Part shown: piece after piece, positions 13,803 to 61,520 of the stretch | Numbering within the stretch: the first letter of the stretch is position 1 | Layout: every line of letters begins with the position of its first letter | Assembly: GCA_903851445.1 (NCBI GenBank) | Contig: CAINOH010000009.1 | Coordinates: 23,908-87,907 of the forward strand | Source of the DNA: an uncultured Candidatus Micrarchaeota archaeon | GTDB lineage: Archaea; Micrarchaeota; Micrarchaeia; Norongarragalinales; CAINOH01 | DNA: 64,000 bases | Direction: 5' to 3' | Position numbers and translations under genes: made by a program | Notes under the pieces: generated by a model | What the model was told of the DNA's origin: nothing | Databases searched by the model: none | What the model saw: only the letters and a program-made list of their open reading frames with translations

Positions 13803-13907
13803 TGGCCAGCCGCGGAGCAGGACAACTGCCGGCTGATGCGAAGCGCATATAATGATTGTTGCCCAAAGTCGTCTTACAAACTTTCAACAAGAAAAGGTCG
13901 GTTGCCT

Positions 13908-14639: not shown

Positions 14640-14641
14640 AA

Positions 14642-17040: not shown

Positions 17041-17233
17041 TGTAAACCACCTTAAATGAAAATGGACTAAGAAATCAAGATGCCGAGTTTATTTAAATAG
17101 GTTGCTTAACTCCGGCGTTTTCGCGCAAACCCAACGCCCAACGCCATACTTTCTCCTCTAATAAAAGCGATGGCTTTTTAAAGAGCCGAACAGAAATGAC
17201 ATAAAATAATTGATACAAAAAGGTGAACTGCTG

Positions 17234-17620
17234 ATGTCTGAAACAAAGAGGGGCCAGGGCGCGTTCGAGTACATTCTGATGCTGTCGGGAGTGCTCCTGA
17301 TAGTGATACTCATAATATTCATACTCCAAGGGACGATAACGGGAACAAACAACACTATGGGAACACAGCAAAACACGCTCAACAGCACAGTAAACGTGGA
17401 CATAGTACCGCAATACACGCAATGTTTGATAGTCACAAGTGCAACTGGCAGCATCACCGGACCATCATACCCCTGCTGCGTCCTTAACGGAGCCGCAAAC
17501 CTTGCCGCATGCACAGCAGCAGGATGCGCCGGAGTACCTGGGATTGTTCAATGCACCCAAACCACACTTGCCAGCTGTCCGACAAGCCAGTTCAACAGGA
17601 AAATAGGAAGGTGCGCGTAA
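17234..17620 (+). CDS. Cysteine-rich mini-pilin (family member 1)
   Basis: MSETKRGQGAFEYILMLSGVLLIVILIIFILQGTITGTNNTM... then PCC...C...C...FNRKIGRCA. Confidence 0.7.
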   Translation: MSETKRGQGAFEYILMLSGVLLIVILIIFILQGTITGTNNTMGTQQNTLNSTVNVDIVPQYTQCLIVTSATGSITGPSYPCCVLNGAANLAACTAAGCAGVPGIVQCTQTTLASCPTSQFNRKIGRCA

Positions 17621-17662
17621 GCGCACACTTTCCCCATCTTTCTTAAGAGGTGAACAAGGAAT

Positions 17663-18001
17663 ATGAGACGCGGACAAGGCGCATTTGAATACATACTCAT
17701 GCTTTCGGGGGTACTGCTGATTGTGATAATCATCATATTCATACTCCAGGGGACAATCGGCGGGGCGAACAACACGATGACAGCACAGCAAAACACCTAC
17801 AACACGTCAGTGTCCGTGGATATCGTGCCCCAGTACACGGCAAACCTAATAGTGATGAGCCAGACTGGCGGACTTGGCGGCCCATACCCCTGCTGTGAAA
17901 ACTTCGCTACGCCAGGATGCACCGGAGTAATAATCAACTGCACCGGCACGCTCAACTGCTATTCAAGCAGGTTCGACAGGAAAGTAGGAAGGTGCGTATA
18001 A
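17663..18001 (+). CDS. Cysteine-rich mini-pilin (family member 2)
   Basis: MRRGQGAFEYILMLSGVLLIVIIIIFILQGTIGGANNTM...PCCENFATPGCTGVIINCTGTLNCYSSRFDRKVGRCV. Confidence 0.75.
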   Translation: MRRGQGAFEYILMLSGVLLIVIIIIFILQGTIGGANNTMTAQQNTYNTSVSVDIVPQYTANLIVMSQTGGLGGPYPCCENFATPGCTGVIINCTGTLNCYSSRFDRKVGRCV

Positions 18002-18042
18002 GCGCATTGCCTCTCTTTTTTTATTTTTAAATAATTGAAATA

Positions 18043-18420
18043 GTGATTGGGACTATGATGAGGCGCGGCCAGGGGGCATTTGAGTACATCCTGATGCTGT
18101 CCGGGGTGATTCTCGTGGTCATAATCATCCTGCTCATACTGCAGGGCAGCATCTCATCCACAAACAACACGCTTGCGGACAACGAGAACAAGTTTGGAAC
18201 CTATACGACGGTCGACTTTGACAACCACCGGACGCCCAACCTGTACGTGGCTGAGCAGACGGGTACTACCACAATAACAAACACGCCCTGCTGCTCGAAC
18301 GTGAACTCGTCTACAGTAAAATGCTACGGCCCGAACAGCGTATCGAGCACCACCATATGCAGCGCAAACATCACGTGCCCGTCGAAATACTTCAACAACG
18401 CAACTGGCACCTGCGGCTGA
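18043..18420 (+). CDS. Cysteine-rich mini-pilin (family member 3)
   Basis: ...MMRRGQGAFEYILMLSGVILVVIIILLILQGSISSTNNTL...PCCSNVNSSTVKCYG...CSANITCPSKYFNNATGTCG. Confidence 0.7.
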   Translation: MIGTMMRRGQGAFEYILMLSGVILVVIIILLILQGSISSTNNTLADNENKFGTYTTVDFDNHRTPNLYVAEQTGTTTITNTPCCSNVNSSTVKCYGPNSVSSTTICSANITCPSKYFNNATGTCG

Positions 18421-18482
18421 GAAAGAAATAATATAAAAAAAACATTAGCTATAGCAGGAACTTTACTACGAGGAGAATAAAA

Positions 18483-18830
18483 TTGCGGCGCGGGCAGAAC
18501 TATTACGGGATAATGCTCGTGTGCGTGCTCGCGCTCACCCTCGGCACCATCTTCCTGCTTTCACAGGCGCCGCCGGCAATCAACGCCTCGCTTTCAAGCT
18601 CGCAGGACAGGCTTGACAACGGCTCGATTTCGGGGGTTGCACCCCAAGGCGACGCGGACCTTCTTGTGCTAAGGCGCACGGGCAACGTCGCAGTCGACTC
18701 CGCCATTCCCTGCTGCGCGAACGCCAAAAGCGGATGTGGTGGAAACGCGGCCAACTGCACCTATTCAAATGGCAACAGCCTGTCGTGCTTTTCCCGGCTT
18801 TTCGACACTGACGCCGGCTCTTGCGCATAG
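18483..18830 (+). CDS. Cysteine-rich mini-pilin (divergent family member 4; TTG start)
   Basis: MRRGQNYYGIMLVCVLALTLGTIFLL...PCCANAKSGCGGNAANCTYSNGNSLSCFSRLFDTDAGSCA. An aggagaataaaa motif lies upstream. Confidence 0.55.
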   Translation: MRRGQNYYGIMLVCVLALTLGTIFLLSQAPPAINASLSSSQDRLDNGSISGVAPQGDADLLVLRRTGNVAVDSAIPCCANAKSGCGGNAANCTYSNGNSLSCFSRLFDTDAGSCA

Positions 18831-18892
18831 CAAGAATACGCCGCGGATGTTTTCTGCAAAGAATATTAAGCGCTGCAAGAGTAGCGAATAAT

Positions 18893-19078
18893 ATGAAGCG
18901 GAAAGGCCTTGGGCAGCGCGGGCAGACGTCGACGGAGTACATGCTGCTCATAGCCCTCGGCCTGACAATAGTGATTGTCTCGATCGCAATAGCAACCCAG
19001 ATCAAGGGGATGACCGACTCGCTTCTGGTGCGCGCGCAGGTTGAGCGCGAGTCCACAATCTCTATGATTGTGCGCTGA
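18893..19078 (+). CDS. Minor pilin-like protein (61 aa)
   Basis: MKRKGLGQRGQTSTEYMLLIALGLTIVIVSIAIATQIKG... Confidence 0.55.
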   Translation: MKRKGLGQRGQTSTEYMLLIALGLTIVIVSIAIATQIKGMTDSLLVRAQVERESTISMIVR

Positions 19079-19139
19079 TTGTTTCCCAGCAAGGGCGTTG
19101 CTTCAAAACCAATATTAGTACCCGCAGGCCACACTTTGC

Positions 19140-20183
19140 TTGACAACACTTATGACGGACTTCCTGCTTTTCGCCTTTGCAGCTGCCTATTGCGCAACCG
19201 CCTGCTACATTGACATCAGGCATAGGACAATACCGGACTGGCTCACTTACGGCGGCATCGCAGCCGGGCTTGCCCTTGGCGGCCTCAACTGCCTTGCCCT
19301 GGGAGGTGCCTTTGCTTTGCAATACACGCTGATGCTTGCAACCGCGCTTGCCCTGGGCTACCTCCTGTTCGCCCTTGGCGTGTGGGCCGGCGGCGACGCA
19401 AAATTATTCTGGGCGTTTGCCGCGCTGCTTGGCGCTGCAAGCCGTGCAGACGTGCTCCTTCCGGTTGTGCTGTTTGCGGCCTCGGCGCTGCTTTTCCTTG
19501 CCTGGACGTTCGTTTCGAACGCGGGAACCATACTGAAGAAAAGAAGGGAGTGCACGCGAATAGCTGTTGATTCGGCAGCAAAGGCAGTTGGCGCGGCGGC
19601 AGTTGCCTCGCTTTTTGCCAGCGGCCTTGGCGCGGATTACATCCTTGCGGCAATCGTTGCAGTTGCATTTCTTCTTGTGCAGCTGCCGAAATACGCCTGG
19701 CTGGCGATATTGCTTGTTGCGCTTGCCTTGAACGCCGACGCAACCACAGTCGCGTTCCCGCTCTCCTTTTTGCTTGCATCCGCAATAGGGACGGTGGCGG
19801 GAATAGGCTCGAAAGTCATTGCGCCCAGCCTCACCTACAAAGTGCGCAAGGCCGACCTTGAGGAAGGGATGCTGCCAGCGTACACGGTGATTGAAAATAA
19901 CGGCAAGGCGGTGCTGTTTCGGCCAATGTTCGACTTGGGCGGAATAATCAAGGCAGCACGAAAGGAAAGCGATGTGAAAAAAATCCTCCAAAAAGCGGGT
20001 GCGATTCCGCCTGCCGGCTCAAAAATAGTCGCGGATTCCGCAGACGCGGCCGGGCTTGAAGCTTCGCAATTGCAGAGGTTAAAAAAGCTGGGAAATGTTA
20101 GATGGTTGCAAGTGCGGAGGACAACGGCATTCGCGCCGGTCCTTTGCGTTTGCTTTCTTGCGGCGCTTGCCGGGTTGTTCTGA
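19140..20183 (+). CDS. Prepilin/preflagellin peptidase (A24 aspartic peptidase, PibD/FlaK-like) with a C-terminal extension
   Basis: Two catalytic Asp motifs at canonical spacing: CYIDIRHRTIPD (D~24) and GVWAGGDAKLFWAF (GGDxK, D~86). Eight or more TM helices. TTG start. Confidence 0.75.
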   Translation: MTTLMTDFLLFAFAAAYCATACYIDIRHRTIPDWLTYGGIAAGLALGGLNCLALGGAFALQYTLMLATALALGYLLFALGVWAGGDAKLFWAFAALLGAASRADVLLPVVLFAASALLFLAWTFVSNAGTILKKRRECTRIAVDSAAKAVGAAAVASLFASGLGADYILAAIVAVAFLLVQLPKYAWLAILLVALALNADATTVAFPLSFLLASAIGTVAGIGSKVIAPSLTYKVRKADLEEGMLPAYTVIENNGKAVLFRPMFDLGGIIKAARKESDVKKILQKAGAIPPAGSKIVADSADAAGLEASQLQRLKKLGNVRWLQVRRTTAFAPVLCVCFLAALAGLF

Positions 20184-20196
20184 AGGGTAGACGAAG

Positions 20197-20625
20197 ATGC
20201 GCGGACAGGTCGGGCTGGAATTCTTCCTAATACTGGGCTTCTGCCTTGCAATGCTCACAATACTGATTTCGGACTCGGAGCGGGAGATAACCGAGAACGA
20301 AAAGCTTGACACTGCCGTGCTTTCGCTTTCAGCGCTGAACTCGGTGTCCAACGCAATCAACATCGTTGCCTTGCAGGGCAACGGCGCACAGTTGGCAGTT
20401 AGCGCGTTCGTGCCGTCAAAAAGCAAGTGCTACCTGCCGGTTGCTTCAGAGCAGCGGCTTGCTTGCGACATCGGCGACGCGTACGGCCGGCGCGTGTACG
20501 GGATGAGGCTGATGGCGATGCCGGACACCATCAACGATGCGTGCTACACCACGTACGGCTGGATGGACGTTACCGTGAAGAAGGCGGCCGGAAAGATTGA
20601 AATCTACTGCTCGGGGCAGGCGTGA
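20197..20625 (+). CDS. Class III signal peptide pilin-like protein
   Basis: MRGQVGLEFFLILGFCLAMLTILI...; Cys pairs in the C-terminal part. Confidence 0.6.
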   Translation: MRGQVGLEFFLILGFCLAMLTILISDSEREITENEKLDTAVLSLSALNSVSNAINIVALQGNGAQLAVSAFVPSKSKCYLPVASEQRLACDIGDAYGRRVYGMRLMAMPDTINDACYTTYGWMDVTVKKAAGKIEIYCSGQA

Positions 20626-20632
20626 GCGGCTT

Positions 20633-21055
20633 ATGCTTTCTGGAAGGGACGGAAAACGCGCGCAGACCTCGGTAGAGTACATGATGGCGCTTGCGATGAC
20701 CCTCGTGATCGTTGCGGCCATCATGGTCGGCGGGTTCCGCGAGCTCGAGCTTGACCTTGCGCTTGGCGCTGCAAGGATGGGCGGCACCGACTTTACCGCC
20801 GGGAACCCGGGCTACACGCTTGGAAGGGTTGACTTTACCCTTAACGAGAGTGAAAACACCATTAATGTCACGCCGCACTTCTACCTTCGCGGCGCAAGCA
20901 CGATCCCGGACGAGGACAGGATTACGGCCGGGTCCCTATGCTTTTCCAAGATACGAAGCGTGTTCCAGCCAGGCAACTTAAGCCCGAGCGCGGACTATTG
21001 TTTTGACGCGACTTACCGGCGCTACTGCGTCACTCCGGTAATGGCGCCGGCATAG
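20633..21055 (+). CDS. Class III signal peptide pilin-like protein
   Basis: MLSGRDGKRAQTSVEYMMALAMTLVIVAAIMVGG... Confidence 0.55.
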   Translation: MLSGRDGKRAQTSVEYMMALAMTLVIVAAIMVGGFRELELDLALGAARMGGTDFTAGNPGYTLGRVDFTLNESENTINVTPHFYLRGASTIPDEDRITAGSLCFSKIRSVFQPGNLSPSADYCFDATYRRYCVTPVMAPA

Positions 21056-21063
21056 GTGAGACG

Positions 21064-21600
21064 ATGAGACTGCTTCCAACTGACGACGTTTCAAGGTTCC
21101 AGCTTTTCTCGCTGCTTTTCCTCGCGGCCATACTCGCGTCCACGTTCATAGGCACGTACGCGTTTGCGGCCACGCTCCTGCTGTTTGGAATCCTTTGCCT
21201 CTTCCTAGCGCAGCCGCTTGCGCAGGCGCAGAGGAAACAGGCGTACGCGCTGTTCTGTATATTCGGCCTCTTCGGCCTTGGCGCGCTCTTGGGAAGCCTG
21301 TTAGTAGCTTCACCCGCCCAGGCGCTCGGCTTTTTCCCGCTGTTGATTGTTGGTTTTCTTGCCCTGTACGCAGTAGTCAAGCTCTACGTGGTAAGCGGTG
21401 ATGCGGAGTGCAAAGTCATCGGCTACTCCGAAGGCTACGCGATAGTCGATGTCGCACCGTCGGTGCTGGCGGCAATCCCGCCGGGAATCCACGCGGTAAA
21501 AAGCAGGCCTGTTGCGAAGGGAAGGAAGGCGCGGCTTGTCTTTGAGCGCAAGCTTTTCGGCTCCGCGTCAAAGCCAACCGGCCTTGAGACGCACTCCTGA
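21064..21600 (+). CDS. Polytopic membrane protein of unknown function inside the pilin island
   Basis: Four to five TM helices then a ~60 aa soluble tail. No class III motif. Confidence 0.4.
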   Translation: MRLLPTDDVSRFQLFSLLFLAAILASTFIGTYAFAATLLLFGILCLFLAQPLAQAQRKQAYALFCIFGLFGLGALLGSLLVASPAQALGFFPLLIVGFLALYAVVKLYVVSGDAECKVIGYSEGYAIVDVAPSVLAAIPPGIHAVKSRPVAKGRKARLVFERKLFGSASKPTGLETHS

Positions 21601-21694
21601 TTTTTGCCTAATGTTAAACGTGGGAAAAGTTGGGCCGCCACCAGCGTTGCCCTTTCGGCAGTTTTTTATCGTGCAGCATAATACTTCCTTTGCG

Positions 21695-22168
21695 ATGAGG
21701 GGACAGATGGCGTTGGAGTTCTTTTTTGCAATGGCGCTAGTCTACCTTTCGGTCTCCTGGCTGGTCAACTACCTTAATGCGGGCTACGACTCCGGCAGGT
21801 TCCTCGCATTGCGAGAGGAAAAACTTGTTGCTGCTGAAATCGCCGGCCTTGCAAACAGCGCCTGCGTGTCAAACTTGAGCGCGACAATCAACGCGCCGTG
21901 CATGACGTACATTGGAAAACCAACCGGCTACTGGCTTTACACCGACGGCAACAGGCTCATAGTCAATACCTCACTCGCGCCAGAGGCTGCGAGGGCAGTG
22001 GCGGTCTGTGATGTTTACGCCAACCTGACGGAATACAACGCGACTTTTGGCGTGTTCGAGCAGCAGCAAATGGCCTGTGATGCCAACACTTTCGAAGGCA
22101 CAGAGATATGCGTCCGGCCGGACGGCACGGGAAAGGTCGGCCTCTCAATGGGGCGGTGCACGTCATGA
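21695..22168 (+). CDS. Class III signal peptide pilin-like protein
   Basis: MRGQMALEFFFAMALVYLSVSWLV...; several Cys. The internal ATG is chosen over the long ORF from 21512. Confidence 0.55.
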   Translation: MRGQMALEFFFAMALVYLSVSWLVNYLNAGYDSGRFLALREEKLVAAEIAGLANSACVSNLSATINAPCMTYIGKPTGYWLYTDGNRLIVNTSLAPEAARAVAVCDVYANLTEYNATFGVFEQQQMACDANTFEGTEICVRPDGTGKVGLSMGRCTS

Positions 22169-22569
22169 GCCACTACCGCCGCAAGGCCAGGCGTGCGCAG
22201 TTCTTCTCGGCAGACTTTGTAGTTGCAACGGTAACGCTGTGCTTTGCGCTCGGGTTCCTCCTGCACTCCGGCCAGCTTTCGCTTGACAGTTTCTCAAAAT
22301 ACGGCCAGCACGACAACAACATAGCCGAGACAGTTGCCGCAAGCCTTACAACGCCCGGCGCGCTGCCGGTTGCTCCGGCAAAAATGCCGCATACTTGCTG
22401 GGAATACGACAACGGGACGAATTCGACACCGGACTGCGCGTCGGTAATTGACGGCACCGGCGGGTGCGCTGGCCGCAAGATGGACACATATTCCGCAAGC
22501 AGGCTTGTCGCGTGCGGAAACTCGGCGTGCCTTTTGACTGTAAGAAGCTGCGATGTGGTTGTGCAATGA
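22165..22569 (+). CDS. Pilin-like / signal-anchored secreted protein
   Basis: MSHYRRKARRAQFFSADFVVATVTLCFALGFLL...; Cys-rich; start overlaps the previous stop. Confidence 0.5.
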   Translation: MSHYRRKARRAQFFSADFVVATVTLCFALGFLLHSGQLSLDSFSKYGQHDNNIAETVAASLTTPGALPVAPAKMPHTCWEYDNGTNSTPDCASVIDGTGGCAGRKMDTYSASRLVACGNSACLLTVRSCDVVVQ

Positions 22570-22994
22570 GACGGGCGTTCATCTTCACTGCTGACGCGAT
22601 TTTTGCGCTGATGATGCTGGGCGCGGTGGCGCTCATGTTTACAGTGTACGCGACGCAGCCGGAGTATTCTGCCAAGACGACCCTCTTGCAGGCCATTGCC
22701 TATGACTATGCAACGCTTTCACTGCCGCCGGTGAACCTTGACGAGAGCACGTTCAAGGCAAAGACGGGCTTTGACGTTTACGTCTCGGAGGGCGCGGTGC
22801 CAAACGCAAGGCAAATCGTGGTGCGGGCGACAAAGTACGCGTACAACAACTCGTGCAACAGCAAGGACTGCAGCAAAAACTGCAGCATTACCAAGGCCGA
22901 TGCGACCGGGTCGGGCGGGTACGGCTGCCTTACAAACCAGGCGCTTGACCGGTTCGGCATAATCAGCACAAAAGCGTGGGTGGCTACCCCATGA
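22566..22994 (+). CDS. Pilin-like / signal-anchored secreted protein
   Basis: MRRAFIFTADAIFALMMLGAVALMFTVY...; ATGA overlap with the neighbour. Confidence 0.5.
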   Translation: MRRAFIFTADAIFALMMLGAVALMFTVYATQPEYSAKTTLLQAIAYDYATLSLPPVNLDESTFKAKTGFDVYVSEGAVPNARQIVVRATKYAYNNSCNSKDCSKNCSITKADATGSGGYGCLTNQALDRFGIISTKAWVATP

Positions 22995-23614
22995 AGGGAA
23001 TGTTCTCTTTCGCAGTGGCAATGTTCGCCTCACTGGTTCTCTTCTACTTCGTGGCCAGTGTGGTTTCCATCTCGGAATACCAGGCCATCGGCCAGAAGCG
23101 GCTGCAGGTGCAGGTGCTCTCGCAGGCCTACGGCGACGCGACTGGAGTTTATGACGATGCAGTAATGGATGCGATACTCGATTCGGCTTACTCGTCAGAT
23201 GATGCCAACGCCTGCAATGGCGCTACGGGCGCGCTTTCAAGCAAGCTTGCCACTAAGGTGCAGTCGTATGTTGACCACACCACCACCAACCTTTCAGCAG
23301 CGTTCGATGGCACCGCAACCGCCGCCACGTCCTGGCCCGCATCGGGCCTCTACGTTGACATTTCCCCTGGCCAGCAGACGCTGGCCCCGTCGTGCAAGGC
23401 AGCAGCGGACGCGAGCCTCGTCCTGAATCGCGTGAATGCAACCGTGGCTTTCCCGCTCAACGTCACTTCAGCCGACGGGTCAACAGGCGCGGTGTCAAAG
23501 CAGTTCAATCGCTCCTACGAAATACTGACCAACTACTCCGCCGCGAGCAATTCGTTCACAATTCTGGTCCGGCGCAACGGCGTTGACATGCGCTGCGTCA
23601 ACGTCGCCTGCTGA
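22991..23614 (+). CDS. Signal-anchored secreted protein (pilus-associated?)
   Basis: MKGMFSFAVAMFASLVLFYFVASVVSI...; ATGA overlap with the previous gene. Confidence 0.45.
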   Translation: MKGMFSFAVAMFASLVLFYFVASVVSISEYQAIGQKRLQVQVLSQAYGDATGVYDDAVMDAILDSAYSSDDANACNGATGALSSKLATKVQSYVDHTTTNLSAAFDGTATAATSWPASGLYVDISPGQQTLAPSCKAAADASLVLNRVNATVAFPLNVTSADGSTGAVSKQFNRSYEILTNYSAASNSFTILVRRNGVDMRCVNVAC

Positions 23615-46558: not shown

Positions 46559-48382
46559 ATGTCTCGTCGCGGCCAGGGCGCATTTGAGTACCTTCTGATG
46601 CTTGGAGGAACAGTACTAATCGCAGTAGTAGTCATCATAATGGTACAAGGTTCCGCCCAGAACGCGAACAGCACGCTCAACGAGTCAACAAACGACTATT
46701 TGGCATACATAAATAGTGGAATCAACAATGCGATTGCAACCACTCCAACGCCTATTGTAACTGTTTTGCCTTCGTCAACCCCAACCACCAGCCCAACGCC
46801 ATCCTCAACTCCCACGGTAACTCCAATGCCTACCACTACCCCGACTGCAACGCCAACGGCTACTCCTACGCCCACATCAATGCCTACTACTACGCCAACT
46901 GCAACAGCTACCGCAACGCCAACTGCTACGCCCACACCCACTACGAGTCCGACGCCAATTCCTACTGCAACGTCCACGCCAACACCTACTGCTAACCCAA
47001 CAGCAACGCCAACCGCAACGTCCACGCCAACACCTACTGCTAACCCAACCGCAACGTCCACGCCAACACCTACTGCTAACCCAACAGCAACGCCAACTGC
47101 TACGCCCACTCCCACCGCAACCCCCGTGACAACTGGAAGCGCCATCATAACGACGAGCCCAGGAGGGGCGCAGGTAATGGTCGATGGCCAGCAGAAGGGG
47201 GTGTCAAGTCCTAGTCTCACAGTTTCTTCCCTGGCGCCGGGAACACACGTCGTGAGGGTTTCAATGCAGGGCTATTTTGACGCGTCGCTTAACGCTGTCG
47301 TACAACTCGGACAGGCCACGCCGGTGACGATTAGCCTCATCTCGCTCTCCGTCCCCACGCCAACACCGGTGCAGGTACCAGCAAGCCCGAAACTGACGTG
47401 CGATTACTCCTTTGCGGCTATCCCGCCGGTGACGAAGACTATCGCGCGGTCGGGAAGCGCCGCGGGAGTGCGCATCGGGTTCTCCGAGGATTTCGGCGCA
47501 ATCGCCACGAGCTTCGAACTCGTAAATCCCGCGAACGGCGCCTCAGTCAACGTGCTAGAGTCACGCAGCGGAGCGGGTTCGGCGTGGCAGTACACTGGCC
47601 AGGCTACCGCTTACGACGGTGGCGGTGCCCTCATCAACCAGGCAGCCGGCAACTCCCTCGGCTCCCAGTGGGGGTACCAGAGCGTGCTCAATGTGAACAC
47701 TTCGGCGACGGGAGTAACGGCATCGGCAGCGAACTGGGTCCCAAATCCTTCAGACACGCTCAACGGTGACGGAACGTCTCCCTGTGCGTCCCAGTATCCC
47801 CCGGCAGTCTTTGACCTCGGCAAGCCCTCGATGAGCGTCAGCGACATTGCGACGTCGCTGGGGACCGCACTCAACATCACGAGCACATATACGCTTCAGT
47901 CGACCATCGACCAATATTGGAAAATGTACGTTCCCGGCGAAGCAATCTACATGAACAGGCAGGTAGCCCGCGACGCCAACCTGCGCATGTACATCCTAGG
48001 ACCAGGCTGGACGGAAGGTCCCATTCGGCCGTACTACGACAATTTCACCATAGCCCACGCCACGTACGTGCGCCCTGTTCCACAGTGGGGGGTATGGATG
48101 ATTACCGCAGATGTCCAGTACACTGCGTTCGTGTGGAACGTGGGTGGAAAGGACGTCGGCGTCGTGCTTCCGGGCGCGAAGGGCTCCCAGCGGCTGGTGA
48201 ACAATACCTACTGCTCCAACGAGGCGGATTACAGCTGCGGCAGCATGGACTATGGTTTTTGGGAACAACTCGATCAGAGTTCCTCATATCCTAACGGGGC
48301 AATCCGCAGCTACTCCTTCGGCTACCTTGTCGGCTCGGTGCCCCAGCTTGAAGCCATCATAGGCAGGTCCATCACGGGTTAA
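46559..48382 (+). CDS. Large pilin-adhesin: class III signal peptide + Pro/Thr linker + PEGA domain + globular C-terminal domain
   Basis: MSRRGQGAFEYLLMLGGTVLIAVVVIIMVQG...; ~135 aa TPTATP-type linker; SPGGAQVMVDGQQKGVSSPSLTVSSLAPGTHVVRVSMQGYFDASLNAVVQ matches the PEGA motif; ~370 aa C-terminal domain. Confidence 0.7.
   Translation: MSRRGQGAFEYLLMLGGTVLIAVVVIIMVQGSAQNANSTLNESTNDYLAYINSGINNAIATTPTPIVTVLPSSTPTTSPTPSSTPTVTPMPTTTPTATPTATPTPTSMPTTTPTATATATPTATPTPTTSPTPIPTATSTPTPTANPTATPTATSTPTPTANPTATSTPTPTANPTATPTATPTPTATPVTTGSAIITTSPGGAQVMVDGQQKGVSSPSLTVSSLAPGTHVVRVSMQGYFDASLNAVVQLGQATPVTISLISLSVPTPTPVQVPASPKLTCDYSFAAIPPVTKTIARSGSAAGVRIGFSEDFGAIATSFELVNPANGASVNVLESRSGAGSAWQYTGQATAYDGGGALINQAAGNSLGSQWGYQSVLNVNTSATGVTASAANWVPNPSDTLNGDGTSPCASQYPPAVFDLGKPSMSVSDIATSLGTALNITSTYTLQSTIDQYWKMYVPGEAIYMNRQVARDANLRMYILGPGWTEGPIRPYYDNFTIAHATYVRPVPQWGVWMITADVQYTAFVWNVGGKDVGVVLPGAKGSQRLVNNTYCSNEADYSCGSMDYGFWEQLDQSSSYPNGAIRSYSFGYLVGSVPQLEAIIGRSITG
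46740..47147 (+). repeat. Imperfect tandem DNA repeats (36/48-bp units, acgtccacgccaacacctactgctaacccaac...) encoding the Pro/Thr linker
   Basis: Units begin at 46970, 47018 and 47054. These produce the antisense [12 protein letters not shown] at 46696..47220. Confidence 0.7.
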
Positions 48383-49643: not shown

Positions 49644-50096
49644 ATGCCCAACCACGGCCAAGGCGCCTTCGAATATCTCCTGATGCTTGGCGGCGTCGTG
49701 CTCGTCGCAGTAATCGTCATAATCATTATGCAGGGTTCGGCTTCCGGGGCAAACAACGCGCTGAACACATCCGCTTCGAGTTACGGCTCGTTTATCACGA
49801 CCGGCGTAGAGAACGTGCTTACGACGGGGTCGGTGAATGGGGCGTCACTCGTTAAATTGACCTGCACCGCAGGCACGGACACCAGCGATATGATTAGCAA
49901 CAATGTAAACTGCAACTCGGCGTGCCAGGCCGCAGGGTATTCAAGCGGGACGACGGTATGCGCCGTCCCTGGCTGCAGCGCGTCATGCAAAAACTGCAGG
50001 CAGATTTCCTGCTATGGCACAGCCTGGAACATAATCACCGACGACTGCTCCAAACCGGGTTCTTGCAAAATTGACAATTGCTACTGCTCCCCCTGA
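49644..50096 (+). CDS. Cysteine-rich pilin (class III signal peptide)
   Basis: MPNHGQGAFEYLLMLGGVVLVAVIVIIIMQGSASGANNALN...; 16 Cys in the C-terminal 90 aa. Confidence 0.65.
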   Translation: MPNHGQGAFEYLLMLGGVVLVAVIVIIIMQGSASGANNALNTSASSYGSFITTGVENVLTTGSVNGASLVKLTCTAGTDTSDMISNNVNCNSACQAAGYSSGTTVCAVPGCSASCKNCRQISCYGTAWNIITDDCSKPGSCKIDNCYCSP

Positions 50097-50168: not shown

Positions 50169-51728
50169 ATGAAGCTGCGCGGCCAGACTGCCCTTGAATA
50201 CCTGCTGATTCTTGCCGGAAGCATAATGATAGTCATCGTCACCTCAAGCGTGCTCAACGGCGTGATGGCACCCGGGATGGAAATCGTGGGCAACAACAGC
50301 ACGCCCCTGCTGTGGCCCCCGTCAGGTGAGTGCGGCCTTGCCGCAACCGTTTACGGTTCCTCTGCAACGGGATACTCCGGGGCCTTCTGCGCTGTTGGAA
50401 CGCCAAACCCAACCCCTGTTTTTCCACCTCAAGGCAGCTCGGTAACGTGGTTCTGTAATGTAACAGATGGCGGGTACAACGCGTCATGTTCAGCGTCAAG
50501 GGCAGCAACATCCACCCCGACGCCTACTCCGACACCATTACCAGTTAATGGTGCTTGCGGAATCAGCAGCGCATACGCACTCACGGCAACAACCAGCGGG
50601 CTCTGCTCAAGCGGAACGGTCTACTCATTCGCCGGCACGGGGCCGTGGACTTGGTTCTGCAATGGCACAAACGGCGGTACGGACGCGAGCTGCACAGCAA
50701 CAGTAATAGTGGACGGCACCTGTGGAACTTCAAACGGGGCAAACCTTACCGCAGCGCCAACAACAAACCTGTGCTCCAATGGGACTAATTCCAGCGTCTC
50801 CGGCACAGGACCGTGGACGTGGTTCTGCAATGGCACGAACGGCGGCACGAACGCCAGTTGCTGGGCAAACGTCATCATCAACAACGGCGGTGCCTGCGGA
50901 ACAGCTGCAAAGAGGTATGCGTACAATGTCACATCATATGGCACTGACACCATCTGCAATGCCGGAATCGCTTCTCCCTCCAGCCCGGCATTCCCAACCC
51001 AAGGAGCGTCAGTTTCTTGGAGGTGCATAGAAGTTAACCTGCCTGAAATTACGATTAATGTTTGCACAGCTTCAAGAGCAGCAGCCCCTGTTAATGGTGC
51101 TTGCGGCACTGCCTCAAAGACATATGTGTACACTGCCACCAGCTATGGAACGGACACGTTCTGCGCCAATGGCACCGCCAGCCCAGCAAGCCCGGCATTC
51201 CCGGCCCAAGGACAAACAATTCCTTGGACTTGCGTGGGAACAAACAACGGAACCAACGCATCCTGTTCCGCCACCAGGCCGGCCAAGATTAATGGTGAGT
51301 GTATAACTTCTGCCTACTTTTCAAACCTTAATGTTTTCAGCTGCGGATATTCCGAAATGCACGATAAAATCGGCAGCCCCGTACTCAGTTGGTGCGTGGC
51401 TGGAAGTATGACTAGTTACACTGGCGGATATACTGGACCTTGGACATGGAAATGCCTCGGAGCATACGGCGGAACCAATGCGTCCTGCTCTGCCTCTCAT
51501 ACAAGTGAATATCATCCGAGTTTTACTTGCGGTTACTCTGGACGCACAACTGCCGCTTGCGTAGCCGCCGGAGGGTACGTTGACTGGTCCGTGTGTGACG
51601 GTTGCGGGTTCTGCAAAAGTTACAGTGCAGCACGTGGTTCGGGCTACTGTGATTTCCTGACAATTGCTAATGTTCCTGCTATTCCTTATGGTTATTTTGA
51701 TAATGGCGTATATTGGGGTTGCATATAG
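50169..51728 (+). CDS. Large pilin-adhesin with six tandem Cys4 repeat modules
   Basis: MKLRGQTALEYLLILAGSIMIVIVTSSVLNG...; modules of ~55-65 aa, e.g. NGACGISSAYALTATTSGLCSSGTVYSFAGTGPWTWFCNGTNGGTDASCTA, repeated six times. Confidence 0.65.
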   Translation: MKLRGQTALEYLLILAGSIMIVIVTSSVLNGVMAPGMEIVGNNSTPLLWPPSGECGLAATVYGSSATGYSGAFCAVGTPNPTPVFPPQGSSVTWFCNVTDGGYNASCSASRAATSTPTPTPTPLPVNGACGISSAYALTATTSGLCSSGTVYSFAGTGPWTWFCNGTNGGTDASCTATVIVDGTCGTSNGANLTAAPTTNLCSNGTNSSVSGTGPWTWFCNGTNGGTNASCWANVIINNGGACGTAAKRYAYNVTSYGTDTICNAGIASPSSPAFPTQGASVSWRCIEVNLPEITINVCTASRAAAPVNGACGTASKTYVYTATSYGTDTFCANGTASPASPAFPAQGQTIPWTCVGTNNGTNASCSATRPAKINGECITSAYFSNLNVFSCGYSEMHDKIGSPVLSWCVAGSMTSYTGGYTGPWTWKCLGAYGGTNASCSASHTSEYHPSFTCGYSGRTTAACVAAGGYVDWSVCDGCGFCKSYSAARGSGYCDFLTIANVPAIPYGYFDNGVYWGCI

Positions 51729-53255: not shown

Positions 53256-53975
53256 TTATGCCGTGCTGGCTGCAGCCGGCCGCACTAGCGAGTAGGCGCG
53301 CTCGACTTTGAGCTCGGAAAAGTCCGCGCGCTCCGACGCCCAGTCAAGGAGCGTGGTAAAGGCCACGTAGGACACGGCAATCCCGGCTGCGAACAACAGC
53401 CGCTCGTACGCCGTGACGGGCATGAGTGCGGCCCACTGCGCCGCGGTGTACGGGAGGGAGTAGGCGAAGATGACCGAGCCTATTGCGTGCGCCGTGAAGG
53501 TGGCGCCCAGGCTGCGTGCAACAAGGTTTTTGCTCCAGCCGGCAACGCGGACAACTACAGGAATGAGCCAGTAGAGCGAGTAATACCACGCCTGCGCGCC
53601 TGCCGGGGTCATCATAAATAGCGCCATGCAGGCAAGGGGCACGCCGATCCCAACCGCGTCAAACCTCTTGGTGTCTATGCGGGCAAAATAGTATGCCGCA
53701 AAGAGCATTGTTGAAAGCCGCAGTACGTTCACAAGGGTAATCGCCTTTCCAAGGAGCACGAAATTCACCACCTGCGAAGCCAGAAGCGCAGCGAGGCCCA
53801 GGCCCAGGCCTAGGAACGCCGCGACTATGGGGCCGAAGAACTGGAAGAGCGTAAAGTAAGCCGCATTCGAGCCTATGACTGGCGCGAAGTTGATCTGCTC
53901 GGCAATCGCCGCGAACACCGCAAAGAGGCACAAGAACAGGAGCTTGCGCTTCGTAAGGCCCATTGGCAAATCCAT
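53256..53975 (-). CDS. Polytopic membrane protein; possible small-molecule (vitamin/ECF S-component-like) transporter
   Basis: Six to seven TM helices, 239 aa, 73 nt downstream of folC on the same strand. The functional guess is contextual only. Confidence 0.4.
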   Translation of the reverse strand: MDLPMGLTKRKLLFLCLFAVFAAIAEQINFAPVIGSNAAYFTLFQFFGPIVAAFLGLGLGLAALLASQVVNFVLLGKAITLVNVLRLSTMLFAAYYFARIDTKRFDAVGIGVPLACMALFMMTPAGAQAWYYSLYWLIPVVVRVAGWSKNLVARSLGATFTAHAIGSVIFAYSLPYTAAQWAALMPVTAYERLLFAAGIAVSYVAFTTLLDWASERADFSELKVERAYSLVRPAAASTA

Positions 53976-57186: not shown

Positions 57187-57374
57187 ACCCCATAAAAAAA
57201 GAACTAATGATACACGAAATGCAATAAAAAGAAGTGGTTATGTTTGGGCTGTTAAAAACATATTGTTGGGCTTAGGCAGTCCTTTCTAATACTCCCTATT
57301 AGGTGTGGCATATGCCAATCGTGGCCGGGGGTATCTTGTTAGCTTTGTTTAATAGAAAAACTAGCGACCGACCT

Positions 57375-58979
57375 TCACGACCCCGTGTATCCGCCGTCGG
57401 TTATCGTCCAACCGTTGTTTGCAATTAGCGTGGTGTTCCTTGCCGTGACCGAGGCGGAAGAGTAACGGGATTTGCCGCCATCAAAAGTAACTCCCGACTG
57501 AACCGAATGGCTTGCCCAGCCGTTGAGGAGAGCGTCGTAATTGGTGGTTGACAGCGTCACGCCGGAGAACATCCCGCGCATATCAGTTACACTTTTTGTG
57601 TTCCATTTGCCTATCGGCTGGTTGAAAGCAGACGCGTTGGCAAACATATACTTCATTGTCCAGACTTTCCCCATATCCCAGCCGCCAATAGGCTGGTTGA
57701 ATGAATGCGCGTTGGCAAACATCCAGTCAATGGAACTGACGCTGCTCGTATTCCAGCCCGAGACGTTGCCATTGAACGCCGACGCGCCGGAAAACACGCC
57801 AGACATGAATATGGCATTGCGCGTATCCCATCCGCTTAAGTTCTGGTTGAATGCAGGCGCGCCCGCAAACATTCCATTCATCATTACTACGCTTCTGGTG
57901 TTCCAGTTGCCTATCGGCTGGTTGAACGAAGACGCATACCCAAACGTGCTGTACATATCTACTACGCGGCTGGTGTTCCAATTGCCTATCGGTTGGTTGA
58001 ACGAAGACGCCCAACCAAACATGTTATTCATGGTTATGACGCTGCTGGTATCCCAGCCGGTAATGTTGCCGTTGAAGGAGGTCGCATTGTAGAACATGAA
58101 GTCGAGCGAGGTCAGGCCGGTAAGGTTGAGGCTGTCCGAACCTATGAAGTTCATGTTTGAGCAGCCGTAGAAGGTGCCGCAGGAGCTTGCGGTGTACCTG
58201 AAAACGCCATAGCAGCCGCCGCATTCGGCGTCTGGGGGGGAGCCCGGAGGGCAGATGTCGCTCGAACAGCCCAAGGTGCCCGAGTAGGCGCGGATGTAGG
58301 GATTGTAATTTCCGATGTTCAAGTCGCCCCAGTGGGTGATGTTGATTATCTTCAGCTTGTCCCCGCCATTGTTGAACGAAAAGCTCGTTTCGTTCGTGTT
58401 GGTGACGTTAATCGTGTAAACTCCCGGCGAGACATACACGTGCGTGGTGATGTTAGAGTCTGACCTGCCGTCGCCCCAGTTTACCGAGAAATAACCTGTT
58501 ATCGGGAGCACGATTGTCGTGGAGTTGCTGCCGGTGCCACCGATCTTGCGCGTGTCCCAAACCGCGCTGAATGGCGAAGGCTTTGGAGTCGGGCTGGGCG
58601 TGGGGCTTGGAGTGGGCGTTGCGGTAGGTGTTGCAGTAGGCGTCGCAGTCGGCGTGGGACTGGCCGTTGGTGTTGCAGTAGCAGTGGGTGTAGGAGTTGC
58701 AGTAGGAGCGGGTGTCGGACTCGGCGTAGGTGTGGGCGTAGCAGTTGGCGTTGCGGTAGTTGTTGCTGTCGGAGTAGCAGTAGGCGTTGGAGTTACTGTG
58801 GATGGGGTTATGCCGTAGTTCTGTACTAACTCCCAATAGGTGCTTGACTGATTAGTAACGGAATTGTTTGCCTGGCCTTGCGAGGCCTGCACGACCATCA
58901 GGGTGATGGCTGCAATGAGCACGCTGCCGCCTATCATCAACAGGTATTCGAATGCGGCCTGGCCGCGGGAAACTGACAT
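57375..58979 (-). CDS. Pilin-adhesin fusion: class III signal peptide + Pro/Thr linker + DUF285-type tandem repeats
   Basis: [33 protein letters not shown]...; ~80 aa TPTATP linker; repeated ~26-aa units F(G/A)[24 protein letters not shown] characteristic of DUF285 repeats. Confidence 0.7.
58572..58808 (-). repeat. Low-complexity tandem DNA repeats encoding the Pro/Thr linker of the DUF285 pilin-adhesin
   Basis: Produces the antisense [13 protein letters not shown] (58519..58818). Confidence 0.65.
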
Positions 58980-59007
58980 TTGAACCCGAAAAAACTACTG
59001 TCCTGCG

Positions 59008-59016
59008 CTATAAATA
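59008..59016 (-). promoter_or_regulatory. Candidate TATA box (tttatata on the minus strand) ~30 nt upstream of the DUF285 pilin gene; suggests a leaderless or short-leader mRNA
   Basis: AT-rich octamer in a GC-rich background at the expected distance from the ATG at 58979. Confidence 0.3.
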
Positions 59017-59021
59017 AGAGA

Positions 59022-59057
59022 CCCCCTCCCGATGCGGGAGGGGGCTTCACCTTTTTT
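59022..59057 (-). terminator. Perfect 10-bp stem hairpin (ccccctcccg-atg-cgggaggggg) flanked by T-runs; candidate terminator of the upstream five-gene membrane-protein operon
   Basis: Arms 59022..59031 and 59035..59044 are exact reverse complements; tttttt at 59052-59057. Confidence 0.4.
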
Positions 59058-59136: not shown

Positions 59137-59520
59137 TTACTGTCCCCACATGACCTTACGTTTGGATGTCAGACGCTCCTTGCGGAACTCTCCCTGCATG
59201 TGGTAGTATGAAGCGCCGAAGAGCGCAGCTACCCCGACAATGGGAACGTACATGAGGGTGACGACCCCGATAATGGCGAGCACCAGCGAGTACGAACGGA
59301 AACGCAAAGCCTCCTTCCACAAAGGAAGGTAGCTCTGGGTGTAGGCGTAACGGTTGGTGAGCTTCATCATCGGCTCCTTTCCGTCTGCCGGGACGCTCGT
59401 CATCTGGATGTCCCAGGTCTTTTCCGACGGAGCCTGGCCAGTGGGAGCGACTGCGTCGCCCGAGACGATTTCGTCCGTGTTTTTGGGATTCAGCTTTGAA
59501 AGCATGTCCTGTATTGCCAT
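59137..59520 (-). CDS. Small membrane protein, paralog family member (P5)
   Basis: Soluble N-terminus with ...PMMKLTNRYAYTQSYLPLWKEALRF, then two TM helices. Confidence 0.45.
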   Translation of the reverse strand: MAIQDMLSKLNPKNTDEIVSGDAVAPTGQAPSEKTWDIQMTSVPADGKEPMMKLTNRYAYTQSYLPLWKEALRFRSYSLVLAIIGVVTLMYVPIVGVAALFGASYYHMQGEFRKERLTSKRKVMWGQ

Positions 59521-59533
59521 ATTGCATCCCCCT

Positions 59534-60148
59534 CTACTGCGCTACTATTACCGAGCGCCCCTTCTCCCAGGTGACTTCGGTCCCGAACCCGTTCAGGTGG
59601 TGGCCCCAGTAGTGGCCCCAAAGGTAGGCGAACACAACTGAAATCAGCGGGCTTATGAAAAACGTGACTATCATTAGGATGAAGCACGCCATGGACCAGA
59701 AGAAGCTGTTGTACACTCCTGACCAGCTGTCGTAGCTTTCAATCCCGTTGAACTCGAACCCTAGACGCTTTCCGAGGAAGTGGCCACGCGTGTCGATGTT
59801 GAACATGTGCATTGGCCGCATTCCGGCGGTCATCGGGTCCTTCGGGCCCATGATGTTGCCCGAACCGTCGGGCATCTCCTCGCCTTCCTTGTTAGTGGGC
59901 ACGAACATGGGAATGTCGTAGTTCTCGTTGCCTGCGGGCTGCCCTGCCTGCGCGGGAACAGCAGCGGGCTTTGCCGATGCGGAAACTGCGCTGACCTTTT
60001 CGGAGTAGACTACCTTGTTGTTTCCGACCTTGCCCGCAGTGACCGGGATGGGCCACGACGCCGGGCCGTTGTAGATGTATTTTATCTCCGCCGGAGTGCC
60101 AGCAGCGTTCTTTGCCTGTGAAAGGTTGAGCAATGCCATTTGTCTCAC
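59534..60148 (-). CDS. Small membrane protein, paralog family member (P4)
   Basis: ...YDIPMFVPTNKEGEEM...MRPMHMFNIDTRGHFLGKRLGFEFNGIESYDSW..., then TM helices. Start overlaps the P3 stop. Confidence 0.5.
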   Translation of the reverse strand: MRQMALLNLSQAKNAAGTPAEIKYIYNGPASWPIPVTAGKVGNNKVVYSEKVSAVSASAKPAAVPAQAGQPAGNENYDIPMFVPTNKEGEEMPDGSGNIMGPKDPMTAGMRPMHMFNIDTRGHFLGKRLGFEFNGIESYDSWSGVYNSFFWSMACFILMIVTFFISPLISVVFAYLWGHYWGHHLNGFGTEVTWEKGRSVIVAQ

Positions 60149-60393
60149 AACAGAAACTGCGCCATAAGCGCGTAAATCAGGCAGCCGAAGGCCACCACGT
60201 AAATTGCGGAGTCCGAAAGGCCGAACGGCCGTCCGAGCGAGTGGTCGCTGTAAATCTCGGCCATCGTGGGCGTGTCGGTCGTGTCAAGGACGTGGACCAA
60301 CCCCGCGTCCTCCAGCCACATCACGGCCTGCACAGTAAGGGGCGCGTAGTGGAACGGCGCCTTGTTCTTGTACGGGTTCTTGCTTTCTGCCAT
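60145..60393 (-). CDS. Small membrane-anchored protein (P3, 82 aa)
   Basis: C-terminal TM helix; same operon. Confidence 0.35.
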   Translation of the reverse strand: MAESKNPYKNKAPFHYAPLTVQAVMWLEDAGLVHVLDTTDTPTMAEIYSDHSLGRPFGLSDSAIYVVAFGCLIYALMAQFLL

Positions 60394-60409
60394 AATGCCC
60401 TTTCGCCTT

Positions 60410-60883
60410 TTAGTCTACTGTCATGATTGTACGCTGTACTCCGAACACCCAGGCTCCGAAGCGCAGTGAAGCGCCCATTGCGCGAAAACGCGCTGCAAGG
60501 GCGAACATCAAAAGCGACCCTGCCGGGAAAACCGTGAAAGTGTAGATTCCTGCAACCATCCAGAACGTGAAAATCGACCAGGCGATTTTTTCCTTGCGCC
60601 ACATGTCGATGTATTCCATTACGAAGCCGTGGCGCGTGTTCATGCGCATGACCGGGAAGTCCTTCGGGTTGACTTCGCATCCTGCGGTTGTCACGGTTGT
60701 GCGCGGCTCGGGCACTCCGCCCTTTTGCCTTGCGACCGGCGAGGCTGTGGTCTCGTTCTTCTGCTTTTGGTAAGCGCCGTGATACGCGCTCTCCTGGATG
60801 CCGGGCGCTATGGGCGCCTTGCCGTATCCCGCAGGGTCGCCGAAGCCGGAATGTTCCTGTACTGGAGTGTGCACTGAGATCAT
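60410..60883 (-). CDS. Small membrane protein, paralog family member (P2)
   Basis: ...FPVMRMNTRHGFVMEYIDMWRKEKIAWSIFTFW..., then TM helices. Confidence 0.45.
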   Translation of the reverse strand: MISVHTPVQEHSGFGDPAGYGKAPIAPGIQESAYHGAYQKQKNETTASPVARQKGGVPEPRTTVTTAGCEVNPKDFPVMRMNTRHGFVMEYIDMWRKEKIAWSIFTFWMVAGIYTFTVFPAGSLLMFALAARFRAMGASLRFGAWVFGVQRTIMTVD

Positions 60884-60893
60884 CTAAATCAAC

Positions 60894-61277
60894 TTATGTT
60901 GCCTCGTAGAGCATACGAACTTTCCAGTTGTTGCTTACGTAGAAGTCCTGCCACACGAAGCGGCCGTATGCGAAGCCCGATGCAAGGCCGAATGCGCCTG
61001 CCACGAATATGTTACGCGAGATAAGAACGACTGCCATTATCGCAAGGAAGATTGCAGCTGCCTTGGCTACCTGCCATTCCTTGTAGATTCCGATTGACTC
61101 GTTGAGGTAGTCCTGCCTGCGCTTGATGTGCATGACTGAGTTCCCGTGGGTATCAGTAGGCACGAACATAGGTATGTGGTTGTAGCCGCGCTTCGGGACG
61201 GTCTCGTCCTGCGTGTGGGCCTGCCCATTAGTGAGCATTTCCCTGCGGGCCTTTGAAAGCGAATAGTCTTTTTCCAT
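60894..61277 (-). CDS. Small membrane protein, paralog family member (P1)
   Basis: MEKDYSLSKARREMLTNGQAHTQDETVPKRGYNHIPMFVPTDTHGNSVMHIKRRQDYLNESIGIYKEWQVAK..., then TM helices. The internal ATG is chosen. The extended track ORF to 61403 is AT-rich and contains a TATA-like aaatatataaa at 61323-61333. Confidence 0.5.
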   Translation of the reverse strand: MEKDYSLSKARREMLTNGQAHTQDETVPKRGYNHIPMFVPTDTHGNSVMHIKRRQDYLNESIGIYKEWQVAKAAAIFLAIMAVVLISRNIFVAGAFGLASGFAYGRFVWQDFYVSNNWKVRMLYEAT

Positions 61278-61520
61278 GTCGAACAAATCCCCCTCGATTT
61301 GCGTAACAGATTTAGGAAACCCCAAATATATAAACTGTTCGGTAGTAACAAACATTAATATTTGGTAGACAATTGACGTAGTTTGGAAACTGCCTAAAAA
61401 CAATATTCGTCAAAAGACGTATTTTGGAGGTTTGCGCCTCTGGAAAGGGGAAGGCAAGCAAGGTGGCGTTTAGGCTGCCGGAGCTACTGATTATATTTTC
61501 CAAGCCCCAGTAACACTATC

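Follow-up and report, generated by a model that had tools for sequence, protein, structure and literature searches.

Results

A pilin-like DUF285 gene in a Micrarchaeia genome

The DNA analysed here, which we refer to as the window, is a 64,000-nucleotide (nt) stretch from an archaeon of the Micrarchaeia (DPANN), and all coordinates are given within it. Other proteins encoded in it fall into 90%-identity clusters with members named 'Candidatus Micrarchaeia archaeon'. The gene under study lies at 57375..58979 on the minus strand, where the list of open reading frames (ORFs) gives a product of 534 amino acids (aa) followed by a stop codon. This product matches Pfam PF03382 (DUF285) with an E-value of 2.6e-68 (227.7 bits; cutoff 25), Pfam PF04021 (Class_IIIsignal) over residues 4-29 with an E-value of 1e-05 (25.8 bits; cutoff 23.7), and NCBIfam TIGR02167, the PARCEL 26-residue repeat, over six stretches (87.4 bits; cutoff 30). 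The protein is a genuine member of both the DUF285/PARCEL family and the archaeal class III signal family. An original prediction, made from the letters of the sequence, had called a class III signal peptide fused to DUF285 repeats and had proposed a search with PF03382; both calls were correct, each model scoring above its cutoff and the DUF285 model far above it.

Two ENA assemblies, independent of each other, encode an identical 534-residue protein, and a third has the locus at equal length. The gene at 57375..58979 is real and well formed, and it encodes a modular, pilin-like DUF285 surface protein; no second DUF285 gene lies within the 64-kb window. The signal, the Pro/Thr linker and the repeats had been recognized beforehand, but a beta-sandwich, a six-cysteine insert and a helical C-terminal cap had gone unnoticed. 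The modules, with the evidence for each in parentheses (AF2, AlphaFold2; pLDDT, predicted local distance difference test; HMM, hidden Markov model; TRF, Tandem Repeats Finder), are arranged as follows.

57375..58979, minus strand: whole gene (ORF list, Pfam and NCBIfam matches)
58962..58979, minus strand: leader peptide MSVSRG, aa 1-6 (PF04021 match, conserved pilin columns)
58812..58961, minus strand: carrier module, aa 7-56 (AF2 helix, hydrophobic segment, identity to pilins)
58572..58811, minus strand: Pro/Thr-rich linker, aa 57-136 (composition, low pLDDT)
58296..58571, minus strand: N-terminal beta-sandwich of the DUF285 module ('WGDG' domain, PKD-like), aa 137-228 (AF2 strands)
58179..58295, minus strand: Cys-rich insert with six Cys, aa 229-267 (sequence, pLDDT, homologue alignment)
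58104..58178, minus strand: degenerate N-terminal cap repeat, aa 268-292 (fit to family consensus)
57579..58103, minus strand: seven canonical 25-residue DUF285/PARCEL units, aa 293-467 (unit HMM, AF2, TRF)
57378..57578, minus strand: last half unit and helical C-terminal cap, aa 468-534 (AF2 helices, identity to the homologue P0006)

A head-less helical carrier and a Pro/Thr stalk

The N terminus follows the class III pattern, namely a short charged leader ending in Gly, a Gln at +1, a Glu at +5 and then a hydrophobic stretch, here residues 12-30. Gly-1 (G6), Gln+1 (Q7), Ala+3, Glu+5 (E11) and Tyr+6 (Y12) are invariant across ten pilins of the window, this protein included, and the predicted cleavage by a prepilin peptidase after Gly6 would yield a mature protein beginning Q1-A-A-F-E5-Y. 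An AF2 model computed with an alignment of window pilin N-termini renders residues 6-55 as one continuous alpha-1 helix (block pLDDT 71-97). The first half of this helix is hydrophobic, about 25 residues separate the hydrophobic segment from the linker, and no globular pilin head precedes the linker. The carrier module shares 52% and 50% identity with the N-termini of the window pilins starting at 46559 and 49644, respectively, and as modelled it resembles published helix-only pilins of the Epd/Flp type.

The linker that follows (residues 57-136) comprises 80 residues, among them 33 Thr, 26 Pro, 12 Ala and 6 Ser, and with a pLDDT below 50 it is predicted to be a disordered stalk. Its coding DNA contains imperfect repeats with 64-78% matches. 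The PF04021 match and this 80-residue Pro/Thr stretch bear out the pilin N-terminus and Pro/Thr linker of the original prediction.

A capped repeat solenoid with a beta-sandwich and a Cys-rich insert

An HMM built from the repeat units resolves residues 293-467 into seven contiguous, gap-free 25-residue (75-nt) repeats of the pattern F..A..FN..I..W.....V..M..MF (independent E-values 4e-15 to 4e-20), with the FN of successive units at residues 302, 327, 352, 377, 402, 427 and 452; TRF reports a 75-nt period for units 2-3, and shuffled sequence gave 0.08 units in the same count. The array is flanked by a half unit (residues 468-480) and by a degenerate N-terminal cap (residues 268-292), which fits the family consensus AFxGCSNLxxxATDxPxLSxVTxL and is missed by the canonical-unit HMM. 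The repeat periodicity claimed at the outset was thus upheld by the HMM and its shuffled control. Seven units are canonical, and the claimed count of at least eight is fair only with a cap included.

In the AF2 model, residues 137-228 (92 aa) form the strands of a beta-sandwich (pLDDT about 80-97). This domain is PKD-like at best; in this protein PF18911 (PKD_4) and PF00801 (PKD) reach 18.6 and 17.6 bits, below their gathering scores of 27 and 23.5, and the relatives P0335 and P0336 carry a precomputed PF18911 hit. Between the sandwich and the cap lies a 39-residue, Pro/Gly-rich insert (residues 229-267) that is missing from every homologue aligned, the homologue consensus running directly WG...xxxAFxGCSNL with no insert between. 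The cysteines are at positions 238, 243, 253, 256, 267 and 273. With a pLDDT of 41-59 the model cannot place the insert, which may be a disulfide-knotted loop. The helical C-terminal cap (residues 480-534) has two modelled helices (residues 478-489 and 509-521, pLDDT about 87-96) and ends in GWTITDGG; half unit and cap together have the sequence NYDALLNGW...GWTITDGG. An enrichment of N-glycosylation sequons was considered and dropped, since the 14 observed against 9.4 +/- 2.6 expected are unconvincing.

Apart from the insert, the ectodomain is modelled with a pLDDT above 90 (residues 134-227 and 270-534), and one beta bridge or short strand recurs every 25 residues at that same confidence. The predicted fold is an LRR-like (leucine-rich repeat) solenoid in which each 25-residue turn contributes one short strand. 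The beta-solenoid expected by the original prediction is therefore found in the model as a solenoid, but one of LRR-like form rather than a classic beta-helix. We found no solved structure related to the protein by sequence. An LRR-like solenoid with flanking caps would be a binding scaffold, and for this reason we read the protein as an adhesin.

Roske et al. (2010) also recognized PARCEL regions by an ORF overlapping on the antisense strand or by dyad symmetry in the coding sequence. In the window, a 183-aa antisense ORF (57541-58092, plus strand) with a periodic PIGWLN motif does overlap the DUF285 repeats; it is a by-product of FNQPIG codons read in reverse, a phenomenon described for many PARCEL regions, and shows no sign of being a gene. 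Dyad symmetry in the repeat DNA amounts to four short imperfect inverted repeats, and a strong PARCEL-type symmetry was dropped on account of this weakness.

Filament machinery in the same window

At least 16 genes of the window encode class III signals, of the form G-Q-x-A-x-E-Y, and a candidate peptidase and candidate assembly machinery for such proteins lie on the same stretch.

19140..20183, plus strand: A24 prepilin peptidase with archaeal C-terminal domain and GGD motif (PF01478, 2.6e-11; PF06819, 8.9e-4)
8874-10370, plus strand: FlaI/TadA-type ATPase (PF00437, 3.5e-32; NCBIfam)
10367-11269 and 11273-12298, plus strand: two half-size platform proteins (PF00482 in both; NCBIfam)

The A24 peptidase, which has about nine hydrophobic segments in a crude hydropathy scan, is a candidate processing enzyme that could act on the DUF285 protein, and the ATPase and platform pair are the candidate assembly machinery that it might use. 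The layout of one ATPase with a split platform matches 'system 1' of the archaeal type IV filaments (TFF), which a recent survey places in methanogens and DPANN and describes as having a platform split in two and an Epd pilin that lacks a head.

The surroundings of these genes (5701-23614) form a dense type IV filament region. Pilin-like genes occupy 5701-8877, and more pilins are encoded at 12379-12843. The minus strand carries a near-identical trio of pilin genes at 15231-17040; three tandem pilins of about 110-130 aa are found at 17234-18420, and a helix-only pilin of 51 aa in its mature form at 18821-19078.

The gene occupies a strain-variable slot

Five related Micrarchaeia contigs (L081-L085), whose CTP synthases share at least 90% identity with the one in the window, were compared with the locus. 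Both flanks of the gene are collinear with all five at 75-85% nucleotide identity, and the blastn alignments that define the breakpoints put the flanks at 80-84%. The segment between them differs: in the relatives it measures 1,189 bp and contains, in opposite orientation, a radical-SAM/SPASM gene, with breakpoints identical in all five. That gene (L081 6744-7856, at the same position in L082-L085) encodes a 370-aa protein that is found nowhere in the 64-kb window. The elements of the slot and its border in the window are these.

57270..59016, minus strand: strain-variable segment of 1,747 bp, comprising promoter-like box, gene and T-run (blastn breakpoints, gene tables)
59008..59017, minus strand: TATA-like element TTATTTATAG, 29-38 nt ahead of the start codon and exactly at the left border of the variable segment (sequence; putative function)
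59021..59045, minus strand: perfect 11-bp hairpin with 9 G-C pairs and a 3-nt loop (sequence, conserved flank)
57356..57360, minus strand: T5 run, 15 nt past the stop codon, candidate archaeal terminator (sequence)

Homology breaks at 59017/59016, exactly at the TATA-like box. Elsewhere in the window, TTTATATC-type boxes are centred 26-29 nt ahead of the start of other genes. The T5 run is read as a terminator on the basis of the general behaviour of archaeal transcription, which ends at oligo-T tracts. In L081 the hairpin reads GCCCCCTCC-GCAA-GGAGGGGGT and stands between convergent genes. Because the hairpin lies in the conserved flank and homology breaks at the TATA-like box, the hairpin belongs to the upstream operon, and the DUF285 gene came with a promoter-like element and T-run of its own. 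Taken with the hairpin, these elements make the gene look like its own transcription unit.

The original prediction had accurately described a perfect hairpin, a TATA-like element and an upstream operon of five membrane-protein genes. The hairpin, of 11 bp, is at 59045-59021, and the five small genes each encode a C-terminal hydrophobic segment. This operon (59137-61403, minus strand) encodes proteins of 153, 157, 82, 201 and 127 aa and is conserved in all the related contigs. The five proteins have a hydrophilic N-terminal part and are weakly paralogous, two of them sharing an IPMFVPT motif, and none has a Pfam match. A functional coupling between operon and DUF285 gene was rejected, as L081-L085 keep the operon and its hairpin with the radical-SAM gene in the slot; the two are adjacent by accident, and the link is positional only. 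An insertion by a mobile element was likewise dropped, since the variable segment is flanked by no repeats of at least 7 nt, whether direct or inverted. Integrase genes are also absent.

Most other breaks of collinearity over 42-64 kb likewise coincide with class III genes. The variable class III genes have the coordinates 46559-48382, 49644-50096 and 50169-51728 in the window and 11802-13517 and 14340-14492 in L081. The first of these, a class III protein with a PEGA domain (607 aa), is found in the window and not in its relatives, and a 571-aa class III protein with a CarboxypepD_reg domain is found only in the relatives; the N-terminus of the L081 copy matches the window pilins at 46559 and 49644 at 56-60%. 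Where the window has a 519-aa pilin with Cys-rich repeats (50169-51728), the relatives have a helix-only stub of 51 or 54 aa with the same N-terminus, and the Cys-rich repeats of the 571-aa protein and of the 519-aa protein share 51% identity. Sub-modules that class III fusion proteins share in differing combinations look like the outcome of domain shuffling. The evidence that cassettes of a helical carrier plus an adhesin are what varies between strains in this part of the genome is, in our view, the most useful by-product of the analysis.

Homologues and origin

An exhaustive search of representatives returned 61,627 clusters of DUF285 relatives at 50% identity, the top 150 of which are giant multi-module proteins and of no help in locating class III fusions. 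In the N-terminal domain of the DUF285 module the proteins P0335, P0336, P0006 and P0016 are 66%, 63%, 63% and 53% identical to the window protein, and all four carry a Sec signal peptide directly ahead of a shared 'FSA.WDT' start. For P0006, encoded in a Micrarchaeia metagenome-assembled genome (MAG), identity is 64.5% in the C-terminal cap and 53% over the repeats. Asgard archaea account for eight of the ten best N-terminal-domain hits among labelled genomes. The DUF285/PARCEL family, reported absent from Archaea in 2010 and consisting of genes known to move horizontally (Roske et al. 2010), is now present in several archaeal phyla.

Queries aimed at the fusion itself returned little. The 57-aa N-terminus alone, used as a protein query, gave no candidates; a chimeric query of carrier and N-terminal domain gave two fragments only, both with Sec signals; and a screen of viral contigs for pilin N-termini, to be ranked by DUF285 content, found nothing. 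Within the limited reach of our search, neither an account of an archaeal class III-DUF285 fusion nor a second example came to light.

The original prediction had raised the possibility that the repeats were acquired from bacteria. The non-repeat domains point the other way, being nearest to Micrarchaeia proteins (63-66%) and then to Asgard ones, and the composition of the gene (GC 55%; GC at third codon positions, GC3, 0.67) is within the range of the genome, so that compositional foreignness was dropped as an argument. By sequence comparison, a recent transfer from bacteria (Firmicutes) is not supported, and the closest relatives of the DUF285 module appear to be archaeal proteins with ordinary Sec signals. 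The simplest history is a fusion within the lineage, in which the Sec signal of an archaeal DUF285 surface protein was swapped for the lineage-typical pilin carrier and linker.

Two further groups of homologues were encountered. P0004, P0018, P0021, P0024 and P0030 share a conserved, unannotated N-terminal region, MGISDRKRSI..., and P0005, P0015, P0022, P0023 and P0027 share another, MQVIQI.SLTGHSPY...; in both groups this region is followed by a Pro/Thr linker and then by the same WGDG-DUF285-cap module. The module has thus been grafted repeatedly behind Pro/Thr linkers onto unrelated N-terminal parts.

Discussion

A proposed filament-associated adhesin and its alternatives

On balance, we lean towards reading the gene product as a modular, pilin-like adhesin on the surface of this Micrarchaeia archaeon, in association with a filament. 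Its hydrophobic helix would insert the precursor into the membrane, where the A24 prepilin peptidase would remove MSVSRG and expose Gln1 and Glu5. The machine of ATPase and platform proteins could then take up the helix-only carrier, which would be packed among the helices of small pilins, as an infrequent subunit or at the tip. The Pro/Thr stalk, reaching at most about 25 nm if extended, would hold the solenoid of seven to nine DUF285 units off the filament or the envelope, and the variable concave face of the solenoid would bind a ligand. In the case of a DPANN episymbiont, the binding partner would probably be found on a host cell or on another surface.

Display on a pilus-like filament, as the original prediction had proposed, is plausible: a peptidase, an ATPase, a platform pair, pilins and an alpha-1 helix are all at hand, the carrier retains every residue invariant among the pilins, and peptidase and pilus machinery are encoded within the same 64 kb. 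The same design recurs nearby, as class III plus PEGA in the window and class III plus CarboxypepD_reg in the relatives. Several observations nevertheless weigh against the reading as a whole. The carrier lacks a pilin head and bears a cargo of about 470 residues, so that incorporation into a filament is not assured, and the gene is 37-50 kb away from the pilus genes. Archaeal class III signals also occur on non-filament surface proteins such as substrate-binding proteins. A class III signal stands ahead of a DUF285 module in none of the 38 proteins of the first search, the two of the last search or the 80 loci from GTDB species representatives. Finally, although 39 of the 41 top Foldseek matches in the PDB are LRR proteins (receptors or effectors), these matches are weak, the best having an E-value of 0.025.

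The main rival to pilus display is anchoring in the membrane, in which the class III signal would serve for export only, the helix would hold the protein in the membrane, the stalk would span the envelope or S-layer space, and the DUF285 module would be presented as in the class III substrate-binding proteins of the bindosome type. We hold this to be possible but doubtful. The missing head, the approximately 25 residues between hydrophobic segment and linker, the very large cargo and the distance from the pilus cluster all fit it, and an 80-residue stalk is probably long enough to cross the envelope. Non-pilin class III signals are moreover widespread in archaea, with 4,364 candidate binding proteins reported, and PibD processes substrate-binding proteins. 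Head-less pilins do, however, polymerize in pili of the Epd/Tad type, for which this genome has a system; the carrier keeps all of the residues invariant among the window pilins, and even for the bindosome a pilus-like assembly is the working model.

Two further explanations seem to us very improbable. One is a recent horizontal gain of a Firmicutes- or Mollicutes-type DUF285 gene from bacteria. Its attractions are the known mobility of DUF285/PARCEL genes and their supposed absence from Archaea in 2010, the strain-variable slot, and the many bacterial loci among the 80 best genome loci. Against it stand the Micrarchaeia affinity of the N-terminal domain and C-terminal cap (63-66%) and the Asgard origin of eight of the ten best labelled hits to the former, the lineage-typical carrier, the ordinary GC and GC3, and the lack of integrase genes and flanking repeats. 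The other is an artefact, either a misjoin of two genes at low-complexity Pro/Thr DNA during assembly or an unexpressed remnant. The gene caller of one assembly did split the locus into ORFs of 127 and 378 aa, and the exact sequence is absent from one index. Yet the identical 534-aa product on two independent ENA assemblies and the equal-length locus on a third speak against an error, as do the linker DNA repeats, which at 64-78% are too divergent for an easy misjoin, and the intact frame with its promoter-like box and T-run. An out-of-frame ORF of the same size as the 127-aa one also covers the linker in the window (58453-58836), so the split is probably a gene-calling difference, and a frameshift or phase variant in the sister assembly was dropped as an explanation on this ground.

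Relation to known systems

We return, then, to the reading of the protein as a filament-associated adhesin. The combination of pilin and DUF285 is already known from bacteria, and the locus does not represent a new kind of system. Raynaud et al. (2021) catalogued 1,219 bacterial modular type IV pilins, 22 of which, in nine architectures, carry DUF285 (Dataset S1); bacterial modular pilins, of which PilB and PilC of Streptococcus sanguinis are examples, are proven adhesins, and those such as PilB are polymerized, with a proposed position at the filament tip. Like the bacterial proteins (IPR012902 plus IPR005046/DUF285), the archaeal one uses a class III signal and helix as carrier, with a bulky binding module behind, and the partner domains CarboxypepD_reg (PF13620) and Laminin_G_3 (PF13385) of this lineage are common among them too. 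It differs in having a PF04021 signal with Gln+1 in place of IPR012902, an alpha-1 helix only, and an 80-residue Pro/Thr linker where the bacterial proteins have a short loop. As defined by Raynaud et al., a modular type IV pilin has an alpha-1 helix with a globular beta-sheet head and bears its grafted module on a short linker; this protein has the helix (residues 6-55) but neither head nor short linker, and it would work like a modular pilin but stands outside the set defined by IPR012902.

Three other families share parts of the design. Class III substrate-binding proteins of the bindosome type also fuse an archaeal prepilin-type signal to a functional ectodomain and depend on a peptidase of the PibD/EppA type, as predicted here, but their cargo has a solute-binding fold rather than an LRR-like DUF285 solenoid, and the DUF285 gene adjoins neither a transporter nor a dedicated Bas-type system. 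Epd pilins of Methanococcus and the helix-only Flp/Tad pilins have the same head-less helix of about 50 residues, and the genome has the one ATPase and split platform; those pilins end after the helix, whereas the present protein continues with a 478-residue extension. PARCEL/DUF285 surface proteins (LppQ of Mycoplasma mycoides; 'BspA family leucine-rich repeat surface protein' at NCBI) have the same 25-residue unit, an antisense ORF and strain-variable content, but the known members are targeted as lipoproteins or by Sec or transmembrane signals (Roske et al. 2010), in contrast to the prepilin signal and weak dyad symmetry found here. The closest named relative found, P0006 (877 aa, DUF285 plus Laminin_G_3, from a related Micrarchaeia MAG), has the same 'PFSA.WDT' start. 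It differs in its Sec signal peptide, the absence of a linker, a larger number of repeats, an extra C-terminal half and a locus between eIF-1A and RIO1.

An attached life on other cells is assumed for DPANN archaea such as the Micrarchaeia, and few of the molecules that make the contact are known. The locus offers a concrete candidate contact factor, in which a binding domain is tied to a pilus-building helix, and pilin-fusion genes that differ between close relatives are the pattern expected of factors for host or surface recognition. It also extends the idea of the modular pilin from bacteria to archaea, several phyla of which have documented DUF285/PARCEL modules. More tentatively, the protein might be the first archaeal counterpart of the bacterial pilin-DUF285 adhesins, built otherwise, with a head-less helix of the Epd/Flp type, a long Pro/Thr stalk and an LRR-like solenoid. 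It would then be one of a set of strain-variable, shuffling cassettes of helical carrier plus adhesin (DUF285, PEGA, CarboxypepD_reg, Cys-rich repeats) that are loaded on one pilus machine to recognize different hosts or surfaces; we see this broader proposal as possible but less likely than not.

Additional observations

Three features of the window and the contigs compared with it bear on other subjects. At 53256-53975 the window encodes a multi-pass membrane protein (239 aa, no Pfam match) that is present in L085 and missing from L081-L084, a further small difference in gene content. The contig that carries P0006 (L086) encodes at 2237-5962 an MCM helicase of 1,241 aa containing an intein with a LAGLIDADG endonuclease domain. 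Finally, L085 encodes at 15383-17734 proteins with precomputed hits to COLFI, the C-terminal domain of fibrillar collagens, and to Fibrinogen_C, domains usually tied to animals; the COLFI protein (446 aa) is complete and has a Sec-like N-terminus, and the Fibrinogen_C protein runs past the end of the locus.

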